Shown here: positions 1 to 14,441 of the stretch, piece by piece | Layout: each line of letters starts with the position of its first letter | How positions within the stretch are numbered: position 1 is the stretch's first letter | Assembly: GCA_036229005.1 (NCBI GenBank) | Contig: JAZAMN010000015.1 | Location: 1 to 18,316, forward strand | DNA length: 18,316 nt | Direction of reading: 5' to 3' | Source of the DNA: Myxococcota bacterium | GTDB lineage: Bacteria > Myxococcota_A > UBA796 > CAJQPC01 | Program-made: the position numbers and the translations under genes | The notes under the pieces: model-generated | The model's input: only the letters and a program-made list of their open reading frames with translations | What the model was told of the DNA's origin: nothing | Databases searched by the model: none

Positions 1-133
1 AGGGAAAGCCAGCCAAGGTCGCGATCGTGGCCTGCATGCGGAAGCTCCTCATCCACCTCAACAGCACGATGAGGAGCTACCTTGCGCAGCCGACTGCGCC
101 GGCCGTTCAAACAACTTGAAGAAGACGGTTGCT
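1..133 (+). mobile_element. Right end of an IS110-family insertion sequence (truncated by the window edge)
   Basis: Transposase C-terminus ends at 119, followed by a very short non-coding end (…TTGAAGAAGACGGTTGCT) ending in a CT dinucleotide at 132-133. The ACGGTTG-CT string resembles the donor/core layout of IS621-like elements, and TTGAAG (116-121) is a -35-like hexamer. The exact boundary is uncertain. Confidence 0.75.
3..119 (+). CDS. IS110-family transposase/recombinase, C-terminal 38 aa (partial)
   Basis: Frame 3 reads GKPAKVAIVACMRKLLIHLNSTMRSYLAQPTAPAVQTT*. GKPxKVAxVACMRKLL is the characteristic IS110/IS116/IS902 C-terminal motif. Not in the supplied ORF track. Confidence 0.88.
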   Translation, partial: GKPAKVAIVACMRKLLIHLNSTMRSYLAQPTAPAVQTT

Positions 134-182
134 CACTCAGCCCCCGTAGCCTCGCACCCGCGCTCATTCGGACCCCGTAGCC
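131..182 (+). repeat. Two REP-like units (consensus cgctcaYTcRgaccccGTAGcc), 31-nt period
   Basis: gctcactcagcccccgtagcc (131-151) and cgctcattcggaccccgtagcc (161-182). The same unit recurs six times at 6753-7008. Confidence 0.85.
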
Positions 183-189
183 CCTCAAA

Positions 190-975
190 TCACCGCCCCA
201 GAACGTCCCAGTGCCCGACCGCCAGCGCGACCTCCCCCCGCGCGATGGCCGCCAGCTTGTCCGCCAGCCACCCGTCCACCTCGGCCCCACACTCCCCAGC
301 TGCCTGGGCGATGCCCCGCGCCATCTCCGCCAGCATGGGCCCATCGGAGGCCGGGATCTGCCAGGTCGTCGGCAGCATCTCCACCTGATAGCCGGCCTCG
401 ACCAGCCGATCGCGCAGGTACTCCGAGGCCCCGACCCCCAGGCTCGGACCGAAGCCCCGGTCCAGCAGCTGGTGCGCCCGAAAAGCGGCATGCACCGCCG
501 AGTCCCGCGGGTCCGAAGGCGTCCATTCAATCCGCCCATCCACCGTCAGCGAGGCCAGCAGCGGCCTGCCCGCCAGCCACGCCACCAGCGCGTCCACAAA
601 GCCGGCGTCGACCAGATCCAGCAGCGCCGTGGTCACGACCAGATCGCAGTCCAGCGCCGGAAAGCCCGCCCGCAGGTCCGCCTGCAGCGTGCCCACGCGG
701 TGCGCTCCCCAGTCCACCGCCTCGCCATCGTGTTGCCCAGTCGGCAGCCCCAGCCGCTCTCGCGCCGCGTCCAGCAGCCGGGCGTCGTGGTCCACCAGGG
801 TCCAGTGCTGGCGCCCCGGCATCCGCGGACTCAGGAAGCGCAGGTTGGACCCCGTCCCACACGCCAAGTCCACCACCCGGGCCCCCGGGATCGCCGGAAT
901 CAGCCCCAGACTCTCCCCGCGGGAGAGGTGATCGTAGCCCTCCCGCATCGCCAACCACTCGGGATCAAAGCCCAT
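190..975 (-). CDS. Class I SAM-dependent methyltransferase
   Basis: Motif I VVDLACGTGSNLRFL, acidic motif II WTLVDHD, DLVVTTALLDLV. Last gene of the operon; overlaps the GT4 stop by 11 nt. Confidence 0.88.
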   Translation of the reverse strand: MGFDPEWLAMREGYDHLSRGESLGLIPAIPGARVVDLACGTGSNLRFLSPRMPGRQHWTLVDHDARLLDAARERLGLPTGQHDGEAVDWGAHRVGTLQADLRAGFPALDCDLVVTTALLDLVDAGFVDALVAWLAGRPLLASLTVDGRIEWTPSDPRDSAVHAAFRAHQLLDRGFGPSLGVGASEYLRDRLVEAGYQVEMLPTTWQIPASDGPMLAEMARGIAQAAGECGAEVDGWLADKLAAIARGEVALAVGHWDVLGR

Positions 976-1888
976 CCAGCACCTCCATGACCGTGTCCGC
1001 TGCCTGCGCCCAGGTGGGCAGCTCCGCCCCCTGCGCCGCTACCCACATGCGCTCGCGCAGCGCCGCATCGCCCAGGTAGGCGGCCAGCCCCACGCGCAGG
1101 TCCCCCAGCTCCAGCGCCGCCCCGACGGGCAGCACCTCCAGGGCGCCCGCCGGGGTCGAGAGCACCGGCCGCCCGTGGGCCACCGCCTCCGCGAGCACCA
1201 TGCCGAAGGCCTCGTGGTGGGCCGCGTGCACCAGGGCGTGGGCCCGGTGGTAGTGGGGCGTCATGTCGGCCTGCTCGCCAAGGATGCGCACGCGGTCTTC
1301 CAAGCCCAGCGCGCCGATCAGCCCCCGGATGCGCGCCGCGGTCTGAGGCTCCCGCTGGGTCGAGCCGACCAGGTCCAGCGTCCAGCCCTCCAGACCCGAG
1401 AGGGCCTCCAGCAGCCGCGCGTGTCCCTTGCGGGCCGTCAGGGTGGCGGCGCAGAGCAGGTGAACCGGACCGTTTGGCTTTGGGCCCAGCCGCACCTCGA
1501 CGCCGGGCAGAGCCAGCGAGGAGTCCAGCCCCGCCAAGGTGAGAAGGCGGTGGACCGGCCCACCCGTACACACCAAGGCCTCCGCTCTCCTCAGAGCCTC
1601 CAGCTCCCGCTCCAGGGTGCCCTCCGGCGCGCCCGGCTCCCACGCCGCGAAGCTGTGGACCAGCACGACCGCACGCGAAATCGATGGGAGATCCATCCAC
1701 ATCAGCCCATCAACCAGCACGGGCTCGGGGAAGGAGAGGTGGGGGCCCGCCCCCGATGCCCAGGGCCACCGCAGGGCCTGGATCTGCGCCGGGACCCCCT
1801 TGGACTGGAGCGCCGAGACGAGGTGCTTGTTGTAGAGATAGCCCCCCGTGCGCTGCTCCGGATCGCCAGGGCTGAGCAGGCGAATCAC
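965..1888 (-). CDS. Glycosyltransferase family 4 (GT-B)
   Basis: Likely start is GTG at 1888 (GTGA overlap with the upstream stop). N-terminal TGGYLYN, RKGH, and the EX7E motif EAFGMVLAE. The track's extension to 3217 is out-of-frame shadow over the upstream gene. Confidence 0.9.
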   Translation of the reverse strand: MIRLLSPGDPEQRTGGYLYNKHLVSALQSKGVPAQIQALRWPWASGAGPHLSFPEPVLVDGLMWMDLPSISRAVVLVHSFAAWEPGAPEGTLERELEALRRAEALVCTGGPVHRLLTLAGLDSSLALPGVEVRLGPKPNGPVHLLCAATLTARKGHARLLEALSGLEGWTLDLVGSTQREPQTAARIRGLIGALGLEDRVRILGEQADMTPHYHRAHALVHAAHHEAFGMVLAEAVAHGRPVLSTPAGALEVLPVGAALELGDLRVGLAAYLGDAALRERMWVAAQGAELPTWAQAADTVMEVLDGL

Positions 1889-3609
1889 GGCTTGACGCCC
1901 TGCGTGTGGAGCTGCGGGGCGGGCTGGCCGTCGTAGCGCGCGAGGCTGCGGATCAGGGCGGAGAACATGGCCTGGTGGGAGAGCTCGGCGGGGCCCCTGT
2001 CGGGGGGGACCAGGCCGGGCTGGAAGCCGCGGGACTCGAACTCGCGGAGCAGCGCGGGGTCGGTGGCGAGCACGTGGACGGGCACCGAGAAGCTCATGCG
2101 CTTGGACAGAAAGGGAGGCTGGTGGTCGCCCATGATGATCACCAGGGTGGGGCGCTCGGTCTCGTGGTCCAGGTGCTGGGCGATGGCCTCCAGGTCGTAG
2201 TGGAGGAGCTGGAGGTAGGCGCCCAGGGTCTCGTCGCGCACGCTGCCCTGGCCGCCGTGCTGCATGCCGGCCTCGCGCTTGTAGCGGCCCAGGCGACGGG
2301 TGGCCTCGGTGCGCTCGTCGGGGGTGCGCTTGGTGGTGGCGGCCTTGCGCTTGGCGGCCTTGTCGTGGTCTTCGGCCAGGGGCTCCTGGTCCAGGGTGCG
2401 CCAGTCGGCTACCAGCGGCGGCGGGCTGCGCCAGGGCACGTGCGAGGCGACCATGTGGAAGCTCAGGAACACCGGCTGGCTGCGGTCGGCGGCGGGGGCC
2501 AGGGCGTTCTCGCGCAGCCAGCCCAGGGTGTACTGGTCGGGGATCAGCCCCCAGCCCCACTCGGGGCCCTGCCAGTCCAGGTCGGCGTAGAACACCGTCT
2601 GGTCGAAGTTGAACTCGTTCTCCAGCTCCACGCCGGGGCGCGCGCGGTCCTTGGGCTCGACCACGACCGTGTGGTAGCCGGCGTCGTGGAGCACCGCGGG
2701 GAGCGTGCGGTTGGTGCCAAAGCCCGGCTTGAGGTGCTGGAAGACGCTCTCGTAGGAGACCTCGACCCCTGAGTAGAGCGTGGCGTCCGCGATCCACGAG
2801 CGGCCCCCGCTCACCGGCGCGACCGAGCGGCCCGAGAGGCTGTACCAGCCCTGCTCCCCCAGGGCGGCCTCTAGCTCGCGGAGGTGTGCGCGCAGGGGCT
2901 CGGCGCTGCCTTTCTCGGTGAACGCCAGCTCGCCGTAGGACTCGACGATGAAGATGCGGACCTCGGGCGCCTGGCTCAGGGGCTGCAGGCGCATCTGGGC
3001 GTAGGGATCCTGGGTCTGGGTGCGGGTGACCGAGCGGTAGACGCGCACGGACTCGCTCAGGTTCTCGACCATGTGCGGCAGGATGAAGCGCGCCGGCCAG
3101 CGGGTGGCCCCGGGGTGGATGCGCCCCAGGAAGCTCAGGGCGAACACCAGGACGGCGAGACCGCTGAGCCAGGGCGCCTTGTCGCCCCAGGTGGGCGAGG
3201 CCCGGTGGATCGCCCACGCGGCGCCAGTCGCGAGCAGCACCGGCAGCAGGCAGACGCCGACCACGCCGAGCCAGTCCCAGAGCGTGCCGATGTCCATGAG
3301 CAGGACCACCGCGTGGCGCAGCAGGAAGGCCAGGTCGTAGAGCAGCGGGTCCTGGCCCATGGCGAACACGCCGACCAGGCGCATGATCTCGAAGACCAGC
3401 AGCGCGAGCACCACCAGTCCGCCCAGGGCCGCCCCCGCCTTGCGCAGGCCCAGGCGCGCCATCCAGGCCACCAGCGCCGCGAGACTGAGCAGGTCCACCG
3501 ACAGGCCGAGTGCAAGCCAGGGCGCGGGGGTGTCCAGGCCCAGGGTTCCGGGCAGCAGCACGACGACGTTGAGGACCGCCAGCAGGATCCAGGCGCGGCG
3601 GGGGCTCAT
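1885..3609 (-). CDS. Membrane-anchored alkaline-phosphatase-superfamily (sulfatase/LtaS-like) protein
   Basis: About five N-terminal hydrophobic helices, then a soluble domain with IFIVESYG, PVSGGRSW, SHVPW and IMGDHQP metal-site motifs. ATGA overlap with the upstream gene. Confidence 0.78.
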   Translation of the reverse strand: MSPRRAWILLAVLNVVVLLPGTLGLDTPAPWLALGLSVDLLSLAALVAWMARLGLRKAGAALGGLVVLALLVFEIMRLVGVFAMGQDPLLYDLAFLLRHAVVLLMDIGTLWDWLGVVGVCLLPVLLATGAAWAIHRASPTWGDKAPWLSGLAVLVFALSFLGRIHPGATRWPARFILPHMVENLSESVRVYRSVTRTQTQDPYAQMRLQPLSQAPEVRIFIVESYGELAFTEKGSAEPLRAHLRELEAALGEQGWYSLSGRSVAPVSGGRSWIADATLYSGVEVSYESVFQHLKPGFGTNRTLPAVLHDAGYHTVVVEPKDRARPGVELENEFNFDQTVFYADLDWQGPEWGWGLIPDQYTLGWLRENALAPAADRSQPVFLSFHMVASHVPWRSPPPLVADWRTLDQEPLAEDHDKAAKRKAATTKRTPDERTEATRRLGRYKREAGMQHGGQGSVRDETLGAYLQLLHYDLEAIAQHLDHETERPTLVIIMGDHQPPFLSKRMSFSVPVHVLATDPALLREFESRGFQPGLVPPDRGPAELSHQAMFSALIRSLARYDGQPAPQLHTQGVKP

Positions 3610-4478
3610 GCGGGCGCTCCGGGTTCAGCGCGGAGCAGGGGCACCAAGGCGCCGGGCAGGGCGCCGAGCAGCACGCTCAGGCCGTAGGTGATCGACAGGG
3701 CCAGCGCGGCCTCCTGGGCCAGGCCAAGGGCGGGGAGGAGGAGGGTGGCGGTGGCCTCTCGCAGACCCCAGCCCCCAACGCTCAGGGGGACGGACATGGC
3801 CAACAGCAGCATGGGCATCGCGCCCACCAGCGAGGTGCTCAGTGGCAGCCCCAGAGCCAGCAGGCACAGCACCAGGCCCCCCACAAAGCTCGCCAGCAGC
3901 AGCGCGCTGATGCCCCAGATGGGCCAGGCTTGGGCGCGCAGCAGGCTGCGGCGGGCGTCGCGGGCGAAGGGCCCCACCGCGGGCAGGCCGGCGGGCGCGA
4001 GCAGCCCCAGAGCGGCCACGGCGACCAGCCCCAGCACTGCGGGGACCATCCCAGCCGGCGCCACGCCCCAGAGGGGGATGAGCAGCAGGGCGCAGAGTCC
4101 GCAGAGCAGCAGGTGCCCGGAGAAGCGCTCCACGACCGCCGCGTGCAGAGCCGCCCGCATGGCCTGGCTGCGCTTGCCGTGGCGGTAGATGCGCAGGCCC
4201 TCGCCGGCGATGCCCGAGGGCACGAGCTGGTTCACCAGTGTCGCCAGGTACTGCTCGCCGAAGGCCTGCCGGGCGCTCAGGGGCAGCTCCAGGGTCAGGC
4301 TCACCCGGCGCCAGCGCAGCGCGGCCAACCCCACCTGCAGCGGACCCAGTGATGCCGCCGCGACCAGCCAGGGCCAGCGCAGCCCGCTCAGAGTGGCCTC
4401 CAGGCCCGCGCGGTCCACCCGGGACAGCGCCCACGCCAGCAGCGCGCCGGTCACCGCGAGGGTGCCCAGGGCCTTCAA
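3606..4478 (-). CDS. Lysylphosphatidylglycerol synthase TM-domain (UPF0104, flippase-like) membrane protein
   Basis: Polytopic hydrophobic protein with ALRW, NQLVPSGIAGEGLR and PLSVGGWGLREA motifs typical of the LPG_synthase_TM family. TTG start is uncertain. Confidence 0.85.
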   Translation of the reverse strand: MKALGTLAVTGALLAWALSRVDRAGLEATLSGLRWPWLVAAASLGPLQVGLAALRWRRVSLTLELPLSARQAFGEQYLATLVNQLVPSGIAGEGLRIYRHGKRSQAMRAALHAAVVERFSGHLLLCGLCALLLIPLWGVAPAGMVPAVLGLVAVAALGLLAPAGLPAVGPFARDARRSLLRAQAWPIWGISALLLASFVGGLVLCLLALGLPLSTSLVGAMPMLLLAMSVPLSVGGWGLREATATLLLPALGLAQEAALALSITYGLSVLLGALPGALVPLLRAEPGAPA

Positions 4479-4503
4479 CCCGCGCTGGAGGCGCCCGCTC
4501 AGC

Positions 4504-4917
4504 TCAGGCCTCGGGCAGCGGGGCTTCGAAGGAGGCCCAGGCCACGTCGGACTCGCGCAGGGTCACGCCGATGGCGCTCAGCCCGCCCGCGTGCACGCCC
4601 AGCGAGCCGTCGGCCACCTTGGCGCAGAGGCGGCGCCAGATCTCCTGGGCCAGGAACTCGGTGGTGGTGTTGACGCCGGCGAACTCGGGCAGCTCGTCCA
4701 GGTTCTTGTAGTTGAAGGCGGCCAGCACGGCGTCCACCGCCTGGTGCGCCAGCCCGATGTCCACCACCAGGCCATCGGGGTCCAGGCCCGCGCGCGAGAA
4801 GGCCACGTCCACCACGTAGGTGGCCCCGTGGAGCTGCTGCGCGGGTCCGAAGATCTCTCCGCGGAAGCTGTGGGCGATCATCATGCGGCCGCGGACGGCG
4901 AGCTTGAACATGGGCAT
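4504..4917 (-). CDS. 6-pyruvoyl-tetrahydropterin synthase-like T-fold protein (COG0720), non-QueD subtype
   Basis: MIAHSF…FGPAQQLHGATY…NYKNLD…NTTTEFLA…LRES. Lacks the CxxxHGH signature of QueD. ATG at 4917 (TGATG overlap) or 4911. Confidence 0.88.
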   Translation of the reverse strand: MPMFKLAVRGRMMIAHSFRGEIFGPAQQLHGATYVVDVAFSRAGLDPDGLVVDIGLAHQAVDAVLAAFNYKNLDELPEFAGVNTTTEFLAQEIWRRLCAKVADGSLGVHAGGLSAIGVTLRESDVAWASFEAPLPEA

Positions 4918-5891
4918 CAATCCTGGTCTTTGGGGTAGTCGATCACCTGGCAGAGCCGCCCCGGCGCGCCCAGGATCCCGGGCAGGGCGGCGGGCAGGCG
5001 CTCAAAGGGGATGCCCGGCTCCAGCAGGGCGTCCAGGGCGGGGTCGGCCAGCAGCGCCATGACGGTCTGCATGCGCCGCGCGTAGCTCCAGCGGGCCGCC
5101 CGGTGCGCGGGGATGCGCCCCACCTGCGAGCCGACGATGGACAGCCGCTTGCTGTGGAAGGCGCCGCCCAGGGGGACCGAGGGGCTCTGGGTGCCGTACC
5201 AGCTCAGCTCCACCACCCTGGCCTCGACGGCGCACAGAGCCAGTGAGAGGCTGAGTCCCGCCGACGAGGCACTGCTGTGGATCACCAGATCCTGGCCACC
5301 CTCAGCCTCCTCCGTCCCCCTGAACTCGGTCCCGAAGGACTCGGCCAGGGCCCGCCGCTCGGGGTTGAGGTCCACGACCTGCACGGTGGTCTGGGGGAGC
5401 TGGGCGCAGAGCCACGCCACCAGCGCGCCGACCACCCCGCAGCCCACCACGCTGATGCGGTCTCCGGGGCCGGGCTGGGCGTCCCACACGGCGTTCAGGG
5501 CGGTCTCCACGTTGGCGGCGAGCACCGCGCGGCGGGAGGGGACTTCGCCGGGGATGGCGGTCAGGGCCGCCGCGGGCACCTGGTAGCGGTCCTGGTGCGG
5601 GTACAGGCAGAACACCCGCTGGCCGACGGGCAGGCTGGGCTCGGGGCTGGCGAGCACGCGGCCCACGCTGCAGTAGCCGTACTTGACCGCGCCGCTGAAC
5701 GCTCCCTGTTGGAAGGGGGCCCGCATCTCCTGGTGCAGCGCGGGGGGCACCTGGGCCCGCCAGACCAGGGACTCGGTGCCGCGGGAGATCGCGGAGTGCA
5801 GGCTCTGGACCTGGACCTGGGCGGGGTCGGGGCGCCAGGGCTGGGTGCGCAGCTCGGCCTGCTGGGGGCCGGTGTACCAGAGGGCCTTCAC
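4917..5891 (-). CDS. Medium-chain dehydrogenase/reductase (zinc-binding alcohol dehydrogenase superfamily)
   Basis: GTG at 5891 in GTGA overlap with the RibD-like stop. SAISRGTE, KYGYCSVG, Rossmann VVGCGVVG, ELSWYG. Confidence 0.88.
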   Translation of the reverse strand: MKALWYTGPQQAELRTQPWRPDPAQVQVQSLHSAISRGTESLVWRAQVPPALHQEMRAPFQQGAFSGAVKYGYCSVGRVLASPEPSLPVGQRVFCLYPHQDRYQVPAAALTAIPGEVPSRRAVLAANVETALNAVWDAQPGPGDRISVVGCGVVGALVAWLCAQLPQTTVQVVDLNPERRALAESFGTEFRGTEEAEGGQDLVIHSSASSAGLSLSLALCAVEARVVELSWYGTQSPSVPLGGAFHSKRLSIVGSQVGRIPAHRAARWSYARRMQTVMALLADPALDALLEPGIPFERLPAALPGILGAPGRLCQVIDYPKDQD

Positions 5892-6649
5892 AGGCTGAGC
5901 TCGTAGAGCGTGTCCTGCCCCAGGGGGAAGCAGCGCGTGTCCGGGCGCAGGGCCTGGGACAGGGAGCGGATGCCGGGCAGGCTCAGGCTGGGGCGTCCGC
6001 TGCCCAGGATCACGGGGGCGACCACCAAGTGCAGGCGGTCCAGGCAGCCCTGCTCGATGAAGCGGGAGACGGTCAGGCCGCCACCCTCCACGAACACGCG
6101 GTGCAGGCCGCGCTCGCCGAGCAGGCGCAGGAGCGTGGGCACGGGGAAGGGGCCGGGGCCGGGGAGCACCACGCGCTCGACGTGGGCCGGGAGCGTGTCG
6201 GTGGCGGGGGCCTCCGAGGAGACCAGCCACAGGGTGGGCGCCCCATCGTCCTGGAGGACCTGGTGCGTCAGGGGGATGCGCCCCTGGCTGTCCAGCAGCA
6301 CCCGCGTGGGGCTGGGACCGCGCACCCGCCGCGTGGTCAGCGCGGGGTCGTCCAGCAGCACGGTCGAGGCGCCCACGACCACCGCGTCGGACAGGGCGCG
6401 CAGGCGGTGAGTGTGTACCAGGTCGGCCGGCCCGGAGATCCACTGGGAGCTGCCGCAGTCCATCGCGATGCGGCCATCCAGCGACTGCGCCAGGTGGCCC
6501 ACGCACCAGCGCTCCTGGCGGGCCAGGGGGGCGAGCAGGGACCACGTTGCGAGCTGGGTGGGGCTCCACTGGGTCGCCTTCCCGGTGTCCTCGCCGGCGC
6601 GCAGACGCATCAGGGCGTCCCAGCAGGGGTCGGTCTCGGAGTGGTGCAC
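5888..6649 (-). CDS. RibD C-terminal-type (pyrimidine reductase/DHFR-like) protein, no deaminase domain
   Basis: AQSLDGRIA…SQWISG…HRLRA…DAVVVGASTVLLDDPALTTR…VFVEGGG…VAPVILGSG. Confidence 0.9.
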   Translation of the reverse strand: MHHSETDPCWDALMRLRAGEDTGKATQWSPTQLATWSLLAPLARQERWCVGHLAQSLDGRIAMDCGSSQWISGPADLVHTHRLRALSDAVVVGASTVLLDDPALTTRRVRGPSPTRVLLDSQGRIPLTHQVLQDDGAPTLWLVSSEAPATDTLPAHVERVVLPGPGPFPVPTLLRLLGERGLHRVFVEGGGLTVSRFIEQGCLDRLHLVVAPVILGSGRPSLSLPGIRSLSQALRPDTRCFPLGQDTLYELSL

Positions 6650-6752
6650 GGGGGTGTCTCGGGGCTGGTCGGGCCCTCGTATACCTCACTCAACCCGGGC
6701 TGGGGGATCGGCCGAGGGCGCGTTTAAGTCGGGATAAGCCTGGGCTGGCGGC

Positions 6753-7008
6753 GGCTACGGGGGGTGAATGAGCGCGGGGTGGGGGCTACCGGGTCTGAAT
6801 GAGCGGGTCTCTGAGGCTACGCCCCACCGGTGAGCGATCCGGCCACCGATCCGGCGTGTTTTGGGGCCAGATCGCCGTCATGGGGGCCAAACAGGGTCCT
6901 TTTCGCCTGAATCGGTGGGCCTTTCGCTCATTGGTGGCGGGTAGCCTCTGACGGTCGCTCACTCAGACCCCGTAGCCTCGGGCGGTCGCTCATTCAGAGG
7001 CCCTGGCC
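6753..7008. repeat. Mirror-symmetric REP/REPIN- or MITE-like element: three inverted plus three direct 22-nt units around an 88-nt partly self-complementary core
   Basis: Reverse units start at 6753, 6784 and 6815 (ggctac…tgagcg). Forward units start at 6925, 6956 and 6987 (cgctca…gtagcc; the last is degenerate). The period is exactly 31 nt in both arms. Confidence 0.88.
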
Positions 7009-12656: not shown

Positions 12657-14441
12657 TCAGGGGGCGATCATCACGACCTGGGAGGCCACGGTGCTGCCCA
12701 GGATGACCACCAGCACGGTGTCGCCGGCGTCCTGCGTCACCAGGGTGACCTCGCTGGCGCTGTAGCTGAGATCGAAGCTGCTGGTCACAAAGCCCGAGGT
12801 GGTGTCCCCATAGGCGAAGGTCACCGACCCGTCGCTGTCCACCCAGCTCATGTAGAGCGTGCCGGTCACCGGGTTCCGGTCCCAGGACATCTGCTCGGGG
12901 GCCACCGCCGGGGTCTCTACCCAGGAGGCGGTGGCGTCCGTGATGTTGATGGTTCCGGTGCTGTCGTCGATCCAGGCGCGGGTCTCGGAGCCGTCCTTGG
13001 GCCAGTCCAGGTCCTGGAGCTCCACGGTGGCGTCGCGGTCCAGCTCGACCCAGGAGATCTCGGAGGTCGTGGTGTCCCAGCCCCAGGTCACGTACTCGCC
13101 GGTGCCCGCGTCCGCGAAGCCCAGCACGCCGGTGCCGCTGCCGTCCAGGTAGAGCTGGCAGAGCTCGGCGGGCTGACCGGGGGTGTAGTCGCTCAGGGTG
13201 ATGGTCGCGGAGCTCAAATCGTCCACGCGCATGTACTGCACGCCGTCGGTGCCGCAGCCCACCATGTGGACGCTGCCGTCGGTGTCCACGGCGATCGCGG
13301 TGTCCCGGAAGGAGTTGCTCAGCCCCGCCTCGGTCGCGGTCCAGGTGTTCGGCGTGTCGGTCGTGTACTGCTTGAGGTAGAGGGAGCGGCCCGTGGTGGT
13401 CTTCAACCCGGCCACACCGACCCAGCTCCCGTCCGCCTGGGAGATCTCCAGACCCTCGTCCAAAGCCGAGGTGCTCAGCAGCGAGCCGGTGCCCGTGGGG
13501 CCGAGCTCGGGGGCCTGGTCGTACTCGAAGAGCACCGCGGCGTCGCCCAGGCTCAGGGAGCCGCCGTCGCTCGCGCTCACGGCCAGGAAGGCCACCGCGG
13601 CGGTGCCGGTGCTGCCGCGCGTGACGGTGAGGCTGCGCGGATCCACCAGGGTCAGGCCCATGTCGGTGGTCGCCGCTACGTCCGCGCCGCCCACGCAGTC
13701 CAGGTCGCGGGCGTCGGTGACGTCCTCCAGAGCGCCCGGGAAGGCCTCGGCGTCGACATCGTCGCAGTCCACGGGCTCGGTGCCGGCGTCGACGTGGTAG
13801 GCCCCGTCGGCGTCCTGGTCGTAGTCGCCCAGCTCGTCGATCTCGTCGCAGTTGGAGTTGATCCCGTCGTACCAGGTCTCCGTCGCGCCGACGTAGATAG
13901 TGGCGTCGGTGTCGTCGCAGTCGGTGCCCTCGGGCTCCCGGGCCTGGCCGTCCAGGTCGGCGTCGTAGTCGTCGCCGCCGTCGCAGTTCTGGTCGACGCC
14001 GTCGTACCAGACCTCGATCGCGGTGGGGTTGATGCCGACGTCGGTGTCGTCGCAGTCGTCGCCCTCGGGCTCGCGCATCACGCCGTCGCCGTCGGCGTCG
14101 AAGTCGTTGGCCCCGTCGCAGTCCGAGTCGATGTTGTCGTACCAGGTCTCGGTGGCCGCCGGGTTGATGTCCGGGTTGTTGTCGTTGCAGTCGGCGTCGG
14201 GGCCGTCCTGCTGACCCAGGTAGCCGTCGCCGTCCGCGTCGAAGTCCTCTTCGTCGCCGCAGTCCTGGTTCACGCCGTCGTACCAGACCTCCTCGGCGCC
14301 GGGGTAGCTGTCCGCGTCGTTGTCGTCGCAGTCGCCGTCGTTCAGCGTGAACCCGTCGCCGTCGTCGTCGACAAAGTCCAGGCGCTCTTCGACGTCGGCG
14401 TCCGAGATCCAGGTGCAGGCCAGGCTCAACAGCAGCAGCAC
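12657..14441 (-). CDS. Acidic lipoprotein with five MopE-type putative metal-binding repeats and an unknown beta-rich C-terminal domain
   Basis: GGAGGA RBS, MLLLLSLAC lipobox, five repeats of the form DCDDxDxxxxPxAxExWYDGxDxxC (the fifth degenerate) separated by DxDxDG loops. Confidence 0.85.
   Translation of the reverse strand: MLLLLSLACTWISDADVEERLDFVDDDGDGFTLNDGDCDDNDADSYPGAEEVWYDGVNQDCGDEEDFDADGDGYLGQQDGPDADCNDNNPDINPAATETWYDNIDSDCDGANDFDADGDGVMREPEGDDCDDTDVGINPTAIEVWYDGVDQNCDGGDDYDADLDGQAREPEGTDCDDTDATIYVGATETWYDGINSNCDEIDELGDYDQDADGAYHVDAGTEPVDCDDVDAEAFPGALEDVTDARDLDCVGGADVAATTDMGLTLVDPRSLTVTRGSTGTAAVAFLAVSASDGGSLSLGDAAVLFEYDQAPELGPTGTGSLLSTSALDEGLEISQADGSWVGVAGLKTTTGRSLYLKQYTTDTPNTWTATEAGLSNSFRDTAIAVDTDGSVHMVGCGTDGVQYMRVDDLSSATITLSDYTPGQPAELCQLYLDGSGTGVLGFADAGTGEYVTWGWDTTTSEISWVELDRDATVELQDLDWPKDGSETRAWIDDSTGTINITDATASWVETPAVAPEQMSWDRNPVTGTLYMSWVDSDGSVTFAYGDTTSGFVTSSFDLSYSASEVTLVTQDAGDTVLVVILGSTVASQVVMIAP

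Follow-up and report, generated by a model that had tools for sequence, protein, structure and literature searches.

Among the insertion sequences of the IS110 group, the closest described system is IS621 of E. coli, whose bridge RNA possesses a target loop with left and right guides, core included (PMC11208160; PMC11208158). In Pseudomonas putida, ISPpu9 (10.1101/2025.01.17.633520) and ISPpu10 (10.64898/2026.03.19.712850) are IS110 elements inserted in REP sequences, and ISPpu10 shows in addition a CT core, a junction promoter and a U-G wobble in its left guide. Both the mechanism and the targeting of REP sequences by IS110 elements are therefore already published (IS621, ISPpu9/10). For Myxococcota, our literature search returned no related report on IS110, bioRxiv supplements being outside its scope, and we found no report on a REP-associated tyrosine transposase.

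The element studied here resembles these systems in several respects and, by analogy, may work like IS621. It shares with IS621 a DEDD + Ser recombinase of similar size, a CT core, a long left and a short right end, a target located in an intergenic repeat family, and a predicted target loop whose left and right guides include the core. Its donor (ACGGTTG-CT-TGTGT) is identical to that of IS621 (ACAGTAT-CT-TGTAT) at 10/14 positions. On the contrary, its target is different, consisting of 31-bp phased arrays instead of E. coli REP sequences; its right guide is predicted to pair 5 nt beyond the core, another difference from IS621; and its right end is of 12 nt only, without the TTGAC that many relatives carry at this position. 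As in ISPpu10, we observed a CT core, a U-G wobble in the left guide and insertion in repeats, the junction promoter being only a candidate here, but the host phylum and the repeat differ from those of ISPpu9 and ISPpu10. In the natural data sets of PMC11208160, the donor 9-mer ACGGTTGCT occurs in at least 112 places (file 4) and in 159 (file 5), and the target 12-mer GAAGCGCTCACT was not found in the searched portions of seven supplementary files of this paper.

The window, i.e., the whole stretch of 18,316 bases that we analysed, forms the start of contig C15 in a genome of 6.4 Mb (70% GC, 94% complete, 74 contigs), so that the 2 kb upstream of the element lie outside the contig. The host is probably a marine Myxococcota, judging in part by the habitats of the sequencing runs. 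We hold with high confidence that its first bases (Table 1) contain the right junction of an IS621-like IS110 element of about 1.22 kb, placed exactly on the CT of CGAAGCG-CT-CACTC within a repeat whose period is 31 bp, and that a bridge RNA predicted in the left end likely steers the element to this site by base pairing.

Table 1. Features of the window that bear on the IS110 junction and its target repeat
Feature	Position	Strand	Remark
IS110 transposase gene, 3' end	1..119	+	last 38 codons, frame from position 3, TGA 117-119
Short non-coding right end of the IS110 element	120..131	+	identical in 5/5 copies
Left-donor arm ACGGTTG	125-131	+	same 7-mer plus CT terminates many relatives
CT core, recombination point, right junction	132..133	+	empty allele departs from the IS just before the core
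Right-target arm CACTC	134..138	+	complementary to predicted right target guide GAGTG(AG); common to 5/5 right flanks
Interrupted repeat unit	132..151	+	second unit, right arm of inverted-repeat element; left part at the end of C29
Last 31-bp-period unit of interrupted repeat element	161..182	+	CT at 163
Methyltransferase-like host gene	190..975	-	converges on repeat; anchors empty allele
Intact repeat-family member	6753..7008	.	3 units on -, spacer, 3 units on +
ACGGTCG-CT-CACTC site, formerly proposed as empty target	6951..6964	+	right arm matches; left arm 2/7 vs guide

The preliminary description of this DNA, made from the letters alone, had read a transposase stop followed shortly by ACGGTTG-CT, a near-duplicate of the fifth unit of the intact repeat and a second unit 31 nt downstream. 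All of this was confirmed: 12 nt separate the stop codon from the core, window positions 132-154 and 6958-6980 share 22/23 bases, and the next unit has its CT at 163. It had also taken the "tg" preceding this CT as consistent with a junction there, the seven other units of the window reading CG. The seven units do read CG, but the dinucleotide is only suggestive. Indeed, among the 273 CT-core units of the genome, the dinucleotide before CT is CG in 267, TG in 5 and AG in 1, and since two of the five TG units are IS junctions, "tg" alone is not a proof. The placement of the junction at the CT nevertheless proved right, as five right ends agree up to CT-CACTC and then diverge, and an empty allele is found in three of four public sequencing runs (see below).

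The body of the element is missing from the genome bin and all its copies are located at contig ends, with five right ends (C15, C27, C29, C48 and C50) and four left ends (C22, C29, C58 and C71). The right ends are identical up to ACGGTTG-CT-CACTC, save two substitutions in C50. The left ends start with CT-TGTGT (CT-TGTGTCTGCC), are identical to each other, and follow in each case the right arm of one of the repeat elements. The predicted CT core is observed at 4/4 left and 5/5 right junctions, i.e., a 2-nt core at both ends, and the donor arm ACGGTTG is as first stated. The donor reads ACGGTTG-CT-TGTGT and the target (C)GAAGCG-CT-CACTC. As for the left end, at least 135 nt are assembled, vs 12 nt for the right end. 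Features of the IS1111 group (long right end with the guide RNA, long subterminal inverted repeats) were not found, the predicted guides being in the left end and the right end being of 12 nt.

The longer copy, on C48, encodes a C-terminal fragment of 61 aa. A search with this fragment retrieved P0002, a full-length protein of 320 aa carrying PF01548 and PF02371, to which it is identical at 60/61 positions. P0002 scores 179 bits against NF033542 (cut-off 140), and its catalytic residues D10, E54, D96, D99 and S237 align to IS621 (E 1e-31). The N-terminal DEDD domain anticipated for an IS110-group recombinase is present together with the Ser, as read from this near-identical protein, the N-terminal part being absent from the host-genome assembly. 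Furthermore, an intact sister element, L113 (83% protein identity), has both ends on one contig and measures 1,222 nt from CT to CT, with 245 nt from CT to ATG. Its left end is 89% identical to our four left ends and the donor arm of its right end is identical. As L113 carries both ends together, the left and right ends can be linked as one element. In the sequencing runs X1-X3 described below, the IS contigs measure 1,227-1,237 nt. Judging from its sequence, the element is assigned to the IS110 group, with a size of about 1.22 kb and with those membership features that could be assessed. In the JGI metagenomes, the exact left-end pattern gave 0 matches, and an alignment scan gave, among the matches listed, only relatives of at most 51% identity.

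The contigs of four runs (X1-X4) were aligned to window positions 1-900. Those of X2, X3 and X4, which come from two studies, match from 131 on, and to the left of this point they show, instead of the IS, a repeat unit with the terminal sequence CTCAGCGAAGC; hence, the empty site is CGAAGCG-CT-CACTC, with a single CT. X1 contains the filled allele, on a contig that spans the junction (112-767). In principle, the end of an IS could have been fused with a repeat unit through collapsed repeats, or the left ends could be those of another element, and the position of all copies at contig ends and the missing body are what such an assembly artefact would leave. We give this explanation next to no probability: the X1 contig crosses the junction, the empty allele of the other runs breaks exactly at the core, and L113 has both ends on one contig.

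The loose end of the X3 and X4 contigs matches the left flank on C29 at 29/30 positions, vs 25, 22 and 5 for the three other left flanks and 27 for the best unrelated site. The window copy thus split an element of 3+3 units, the left part of which is found where C29 ends. Comparison of gene order with genus relatives revealed no contig-end partner for the window or for C50, so that the pairings other than C29-C15 are given as proposals: C22 and C71 would pair with C27 and C29-left, C58 would pair with C50, and the left flank of the C48 copy would be unassembled. The C50 right flank falls at a stop codon and possibly represents the outer border of the C58 element. In X1 and X2, additional right flanks pass through CT-CACTC, some entering repeat units and some not. 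Contig depths of the runs were left out as copy numbers. Two RNA runs contain the stretch (shares of 0.13 and 0.05). The host gene that anchors the empty allele has weak methyltransferase matches, all below cut-off, and orthologues in 3/3 genus relatives.

A long non-coding left end with guide loops had been expected, and the assembled left end agrees with it. Its 135 nt are predicted to form a long stem that closes an internal loop, with a small hairpin enclosed in the latter (centroid structure; z -2.9). The 5' side of this loop, TGAAGCGCT, corresponds to the left target plus the core, with one U-G wobble, and its 3' side, GAGTGAG, is the reverse complement of CT-CACTC, an arrangement also reported for IS621 (PMC11208160; PMC11208158). 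Both guides occur in this order and spacing in 4 of 200,000 shuffles. Because the guides match the landing site on both sides, RNA-guided homing is likely. An Rfam search gave no match at the gathering threshold. The assembly stops 2 nt (AC) into the expected left donor guide, which would be ACGGTTG, directly after GCAGCTCGA. Relatives ending in ACGGTTG-CT repeat ACGGTTG as donor guide in their left ends, and L113 and the L014/G001 relative present ACGGTTG and GCACAAG at the homologous place; the donor loop would thus lie just beyond the assembly, to judge by the sister L113.

Guides and targets were then compared across 18 elements that share the donor, i.e., 16 of the 25 listed loci plus G000 and G001, for which a donor guide and a right end were needed (L150 was excluded as having the same junction and left end as L090, and L192 as being the same as L113). 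The best right guide of each element matches its own right target at 84/90 bases in total, perfectly in 12 elements. Permuted pairings match at 43 bases on average and 0 of 100,000 reach 84, a figure that overstates independence since the elements are related and some of them share targets (L052/L088). Left matches are looser than right matches. The occupied left arms match the left guide at 6, 6, 5 and 4 of 7 positions, each with one additional wobble, the weakest being GAGAGCG on C58, and the one readable left target of L113 matches its own guide at 3/7 positions in register. Insertion at half-matches is reported for IS621 (10.64898/2026.08.31.748434).

The target repeat forms a family of 31-bp units restricted to the species. 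A loose scan, with a few sister-family members among its matches, recovered 60 elements and 360 units, about 0.24% of the genome. The elements consist of two inverted arms, mostly of 2-4 units, and the spacing between units of the same strand is 31 nt in 226/243 cases. The exact two-unit pattern is found 92 times in the host genome and in 0/21 other genomes of the family. In agreement with the expectation that the missing part of the repeat would lie to the left of the IS, the left flank is repeat-derived and ends in GCG-CT; the same origin holds for all four left flanks, and all five right flanks share CT-CACTC, so that neither of the findings held in advance to speak against the insertion was made. 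Three of the five right flanks continue as units of the 31-bp family. The C48 copy is located inside a second, long tandem repeat family, in which the equivalent position often reads TGAAGCG, CGAAGCG or CGAGGCG. Tandem repeats of about 230-240 bp, in many copies, are present in G000 at C73:77667-93712 and C57:89661-91665 and on C30, C31, C44 and C4; the C48 copy sits in one of them.

The left target falls within the variable spacer, and consequently only some units fit. Among the 273 CT-core units, 9 unoccupied ones combine at least 6/7 left matches with a perfect right arm. Of the 329 CT-CACTC sites, 9 within repeat units, which make up 0.24% of the genome, match on the left at 6/7 or more positions, vs 3 outside them. 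Site choice thus appears to be set by the 14-mer and not by the whole repeat; most good sites are supplied by the 31-bp family, and the second repeat family, in which this left arm recurs, is also used. Hence, the idea that the element is programmed for this repeat can be retained insofar as the targets match the guides, but it has to be narrowed to a subset of units and extended to a second family. On the other hand, the proposal that the fifth unit of the intact repeat (6958) is a usable empty target has to be abandoned, its left arm ACGGTCG matching the left guide TGAAGCG at only 2/7 positions. As the real left target is CGAAGCG, the formerly proposed "...tcg/CT/cact" would lead to an incorrect left guide. 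The ACGGTCG at 6951 was also considered as an old IS footprint, given its 6/7 likeness to the donor arm, and rejected, 0.5 such units being expected by chance among 271.

Could the protein choose the site, or a host factor that binds the repeat, such as a RAYT-like protein, the guide match being incidental? Most copies are in one repeat family, one of them in the array beside a RAYT-like gene, as such a choice would produce. We nevertheless regard it as very improbable: among 18 elements with different targets, the guide varies together with the target, the second repeat family is entered at the same 14-mer, and no insertion is present in many units whose left arm matches poorly.

A DNA structure could also take part in RNA-guided targeting. 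In the left flanks on C22, C29 and C71, the left target and the G before it form the sequence GCGNAGC, an unusually stable DNA mini-hairpin motif that may or may not bear on targeting. The same three flanks can fold with the core a stem of 4 bp and a 3-nt loop (AGCG-NNN-CGCT, across left arm and core), C58 giving a variant of 3 bp and a 4-nt loop, and the palindromic spacer is present in only 29/273 units yet in 3/4 occupied left flanks. A dual match, in which the RNA and a required hairpin of the repeat would both be needed, has a precedent in ISPpu10 (10.64898/2026.03.19.712850). However, the guide itself selects GAAGCG and thereby creates the stem, which makes stem and guide inseparable here; the folding energies are weak (-2.5 to -4.8 kcal/mol), and the four copies of the sister element of G120 are in unrelated DNA. 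A required hairpin thus seems unlikely to us, and we retain guidance by the RNA.

As inferred from IS621, the element would excise, or be copied, as a circle joining ACGGTTG-CT-TGTGT. The circle junction would switch on the RNA, perhaps via a weak promoter, TTGCTT-18-TAGCCT, with its -35 spanning the core; the donor loop would then read the circle, and the DEDD/Ser recombinase would exchange strands at the CT. Each hexamer of this candidate promoter matches the sigma-70 consensus at 3/6 positions. A TA 17-18 nt after the junction TTGCTT is present in 7/11 elements with a candidate left junction, the match to the consensus being weak. In the left end of L113 as integrated, i.e., outside the circle form, a scan for consensus promoters found none. 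The circle junction (right end joined to left end) was not found among the contig loose ends of the four runs, contigs being prone to drop rare forms.

The repeat family also recalls REP/RAYT systems (REPtrons; E. coli TnpA-REP, PDB 4ER8), by its GTAG-containing intergenic units in inverted arrays and by an array directly upstream of an HUH/Tyr transposase-like gene, on C27. It differs from them in that this gene is below the family cut-offs and the units are 31 bp apart in two arms. The C27 gene carries PNHVH and YIHLNP motifs, scores 37 bits against NF047646 (cut-off 80), has no PF01797 match and matches 4ER8 weakly (E 0.028). It is flanked by the 31-bp units on a single side, directly upstream, in an array that also contains the C27 copy of the IS. 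Homologues, below Pfam/NCBIfam cut-offs, were detected in 52/154 genomes of the order. Using NF047646 at a loose threshold, we identified in G000 five RAYT-like paralogues, all below the family cut-off (C27:37209-37985, C52:40968-41768, C21:19780-20646, C32:32302-33330 and C24:38089-39177), each adjoining a different-looking tandem repeat set; the PF01797 profile and a strict HUH pattern missed them.

Related elements use other targets. In G120, 4/4 right ends of the sister run into CT-CAGTC and then into unrelated DNA, in agreement with its own guide, GACTGAG; the predicted 12-mer has two matches, neither in an evident repeat. The left ends of our element and of the 83%-identical sister show 15 differences, 4 of which fall within the 12 guide bases (by eye from the alignment); the direction of this change is unrooted. 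The relative in G001 has the same donor and a different guide, with two copies that share downstream sequence. A recent natural reprogramming can be tentatively, and with some doubt, put forward: an IS110 lineage with a fixed donor may have rewritten its target guides, leaving dispersed CT-CAGTC sites for a RAYT-associated, species-restricted 31-bp repeat and reaching even the array beside the RAYT-like gene, with its RNA made from a promoter whose -35 lies across the CT core. The element and its sister form a testable pair for the evolution of bridge-RNA guides toward safe intergenic sites, and the present case shows that an IS110 can follow a family of repeats confined to a single species within its family. 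The locus also offers a fully readable target and its guide as they occur in nature, with the target seen both filled and empty, in a marine lineage of high GC content; P0002 is a compact recombinase candidate of 320 aa.

Two other IS110 elements were noticed in the same genome. The first (L003; G000, C4:147350-148860) is multi-copy, with further copies at the ends of C5, C22, C42, C19, C21 and C64. Its left ends start with (C/G)T-TGTATGACC, four right ends share ...CCGGTATCTCAGA, and its flanks look unrelated to the 31-bp repeat. The second, of about 440 aa (L004; G000, C52:176000-177520), is also found at the ends of C7, C16, C57, C13, C45 and C66; all four of its right ends enter a different family of repeats, in which GGTCGCC and CCGATAC units abound, which makes it a second repeat-targeting IS110 in this genome. 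Elsewhere in the window, translations examined by eye suggest a cluster of RibD-like, alcohol dehydrogenase-like, 6-pyruvoyl-tetrahydropterin synthase-like, GTP cyclohydrolase II-like, glycosyltransferase and methyltransferase genes (190-6689). A predicted lipoprotein contains four repeats of 135-141 nt (13770-14337), and a poly-Glu-coding tract lies in a TonB-like gene at the contig end (18191-18293).
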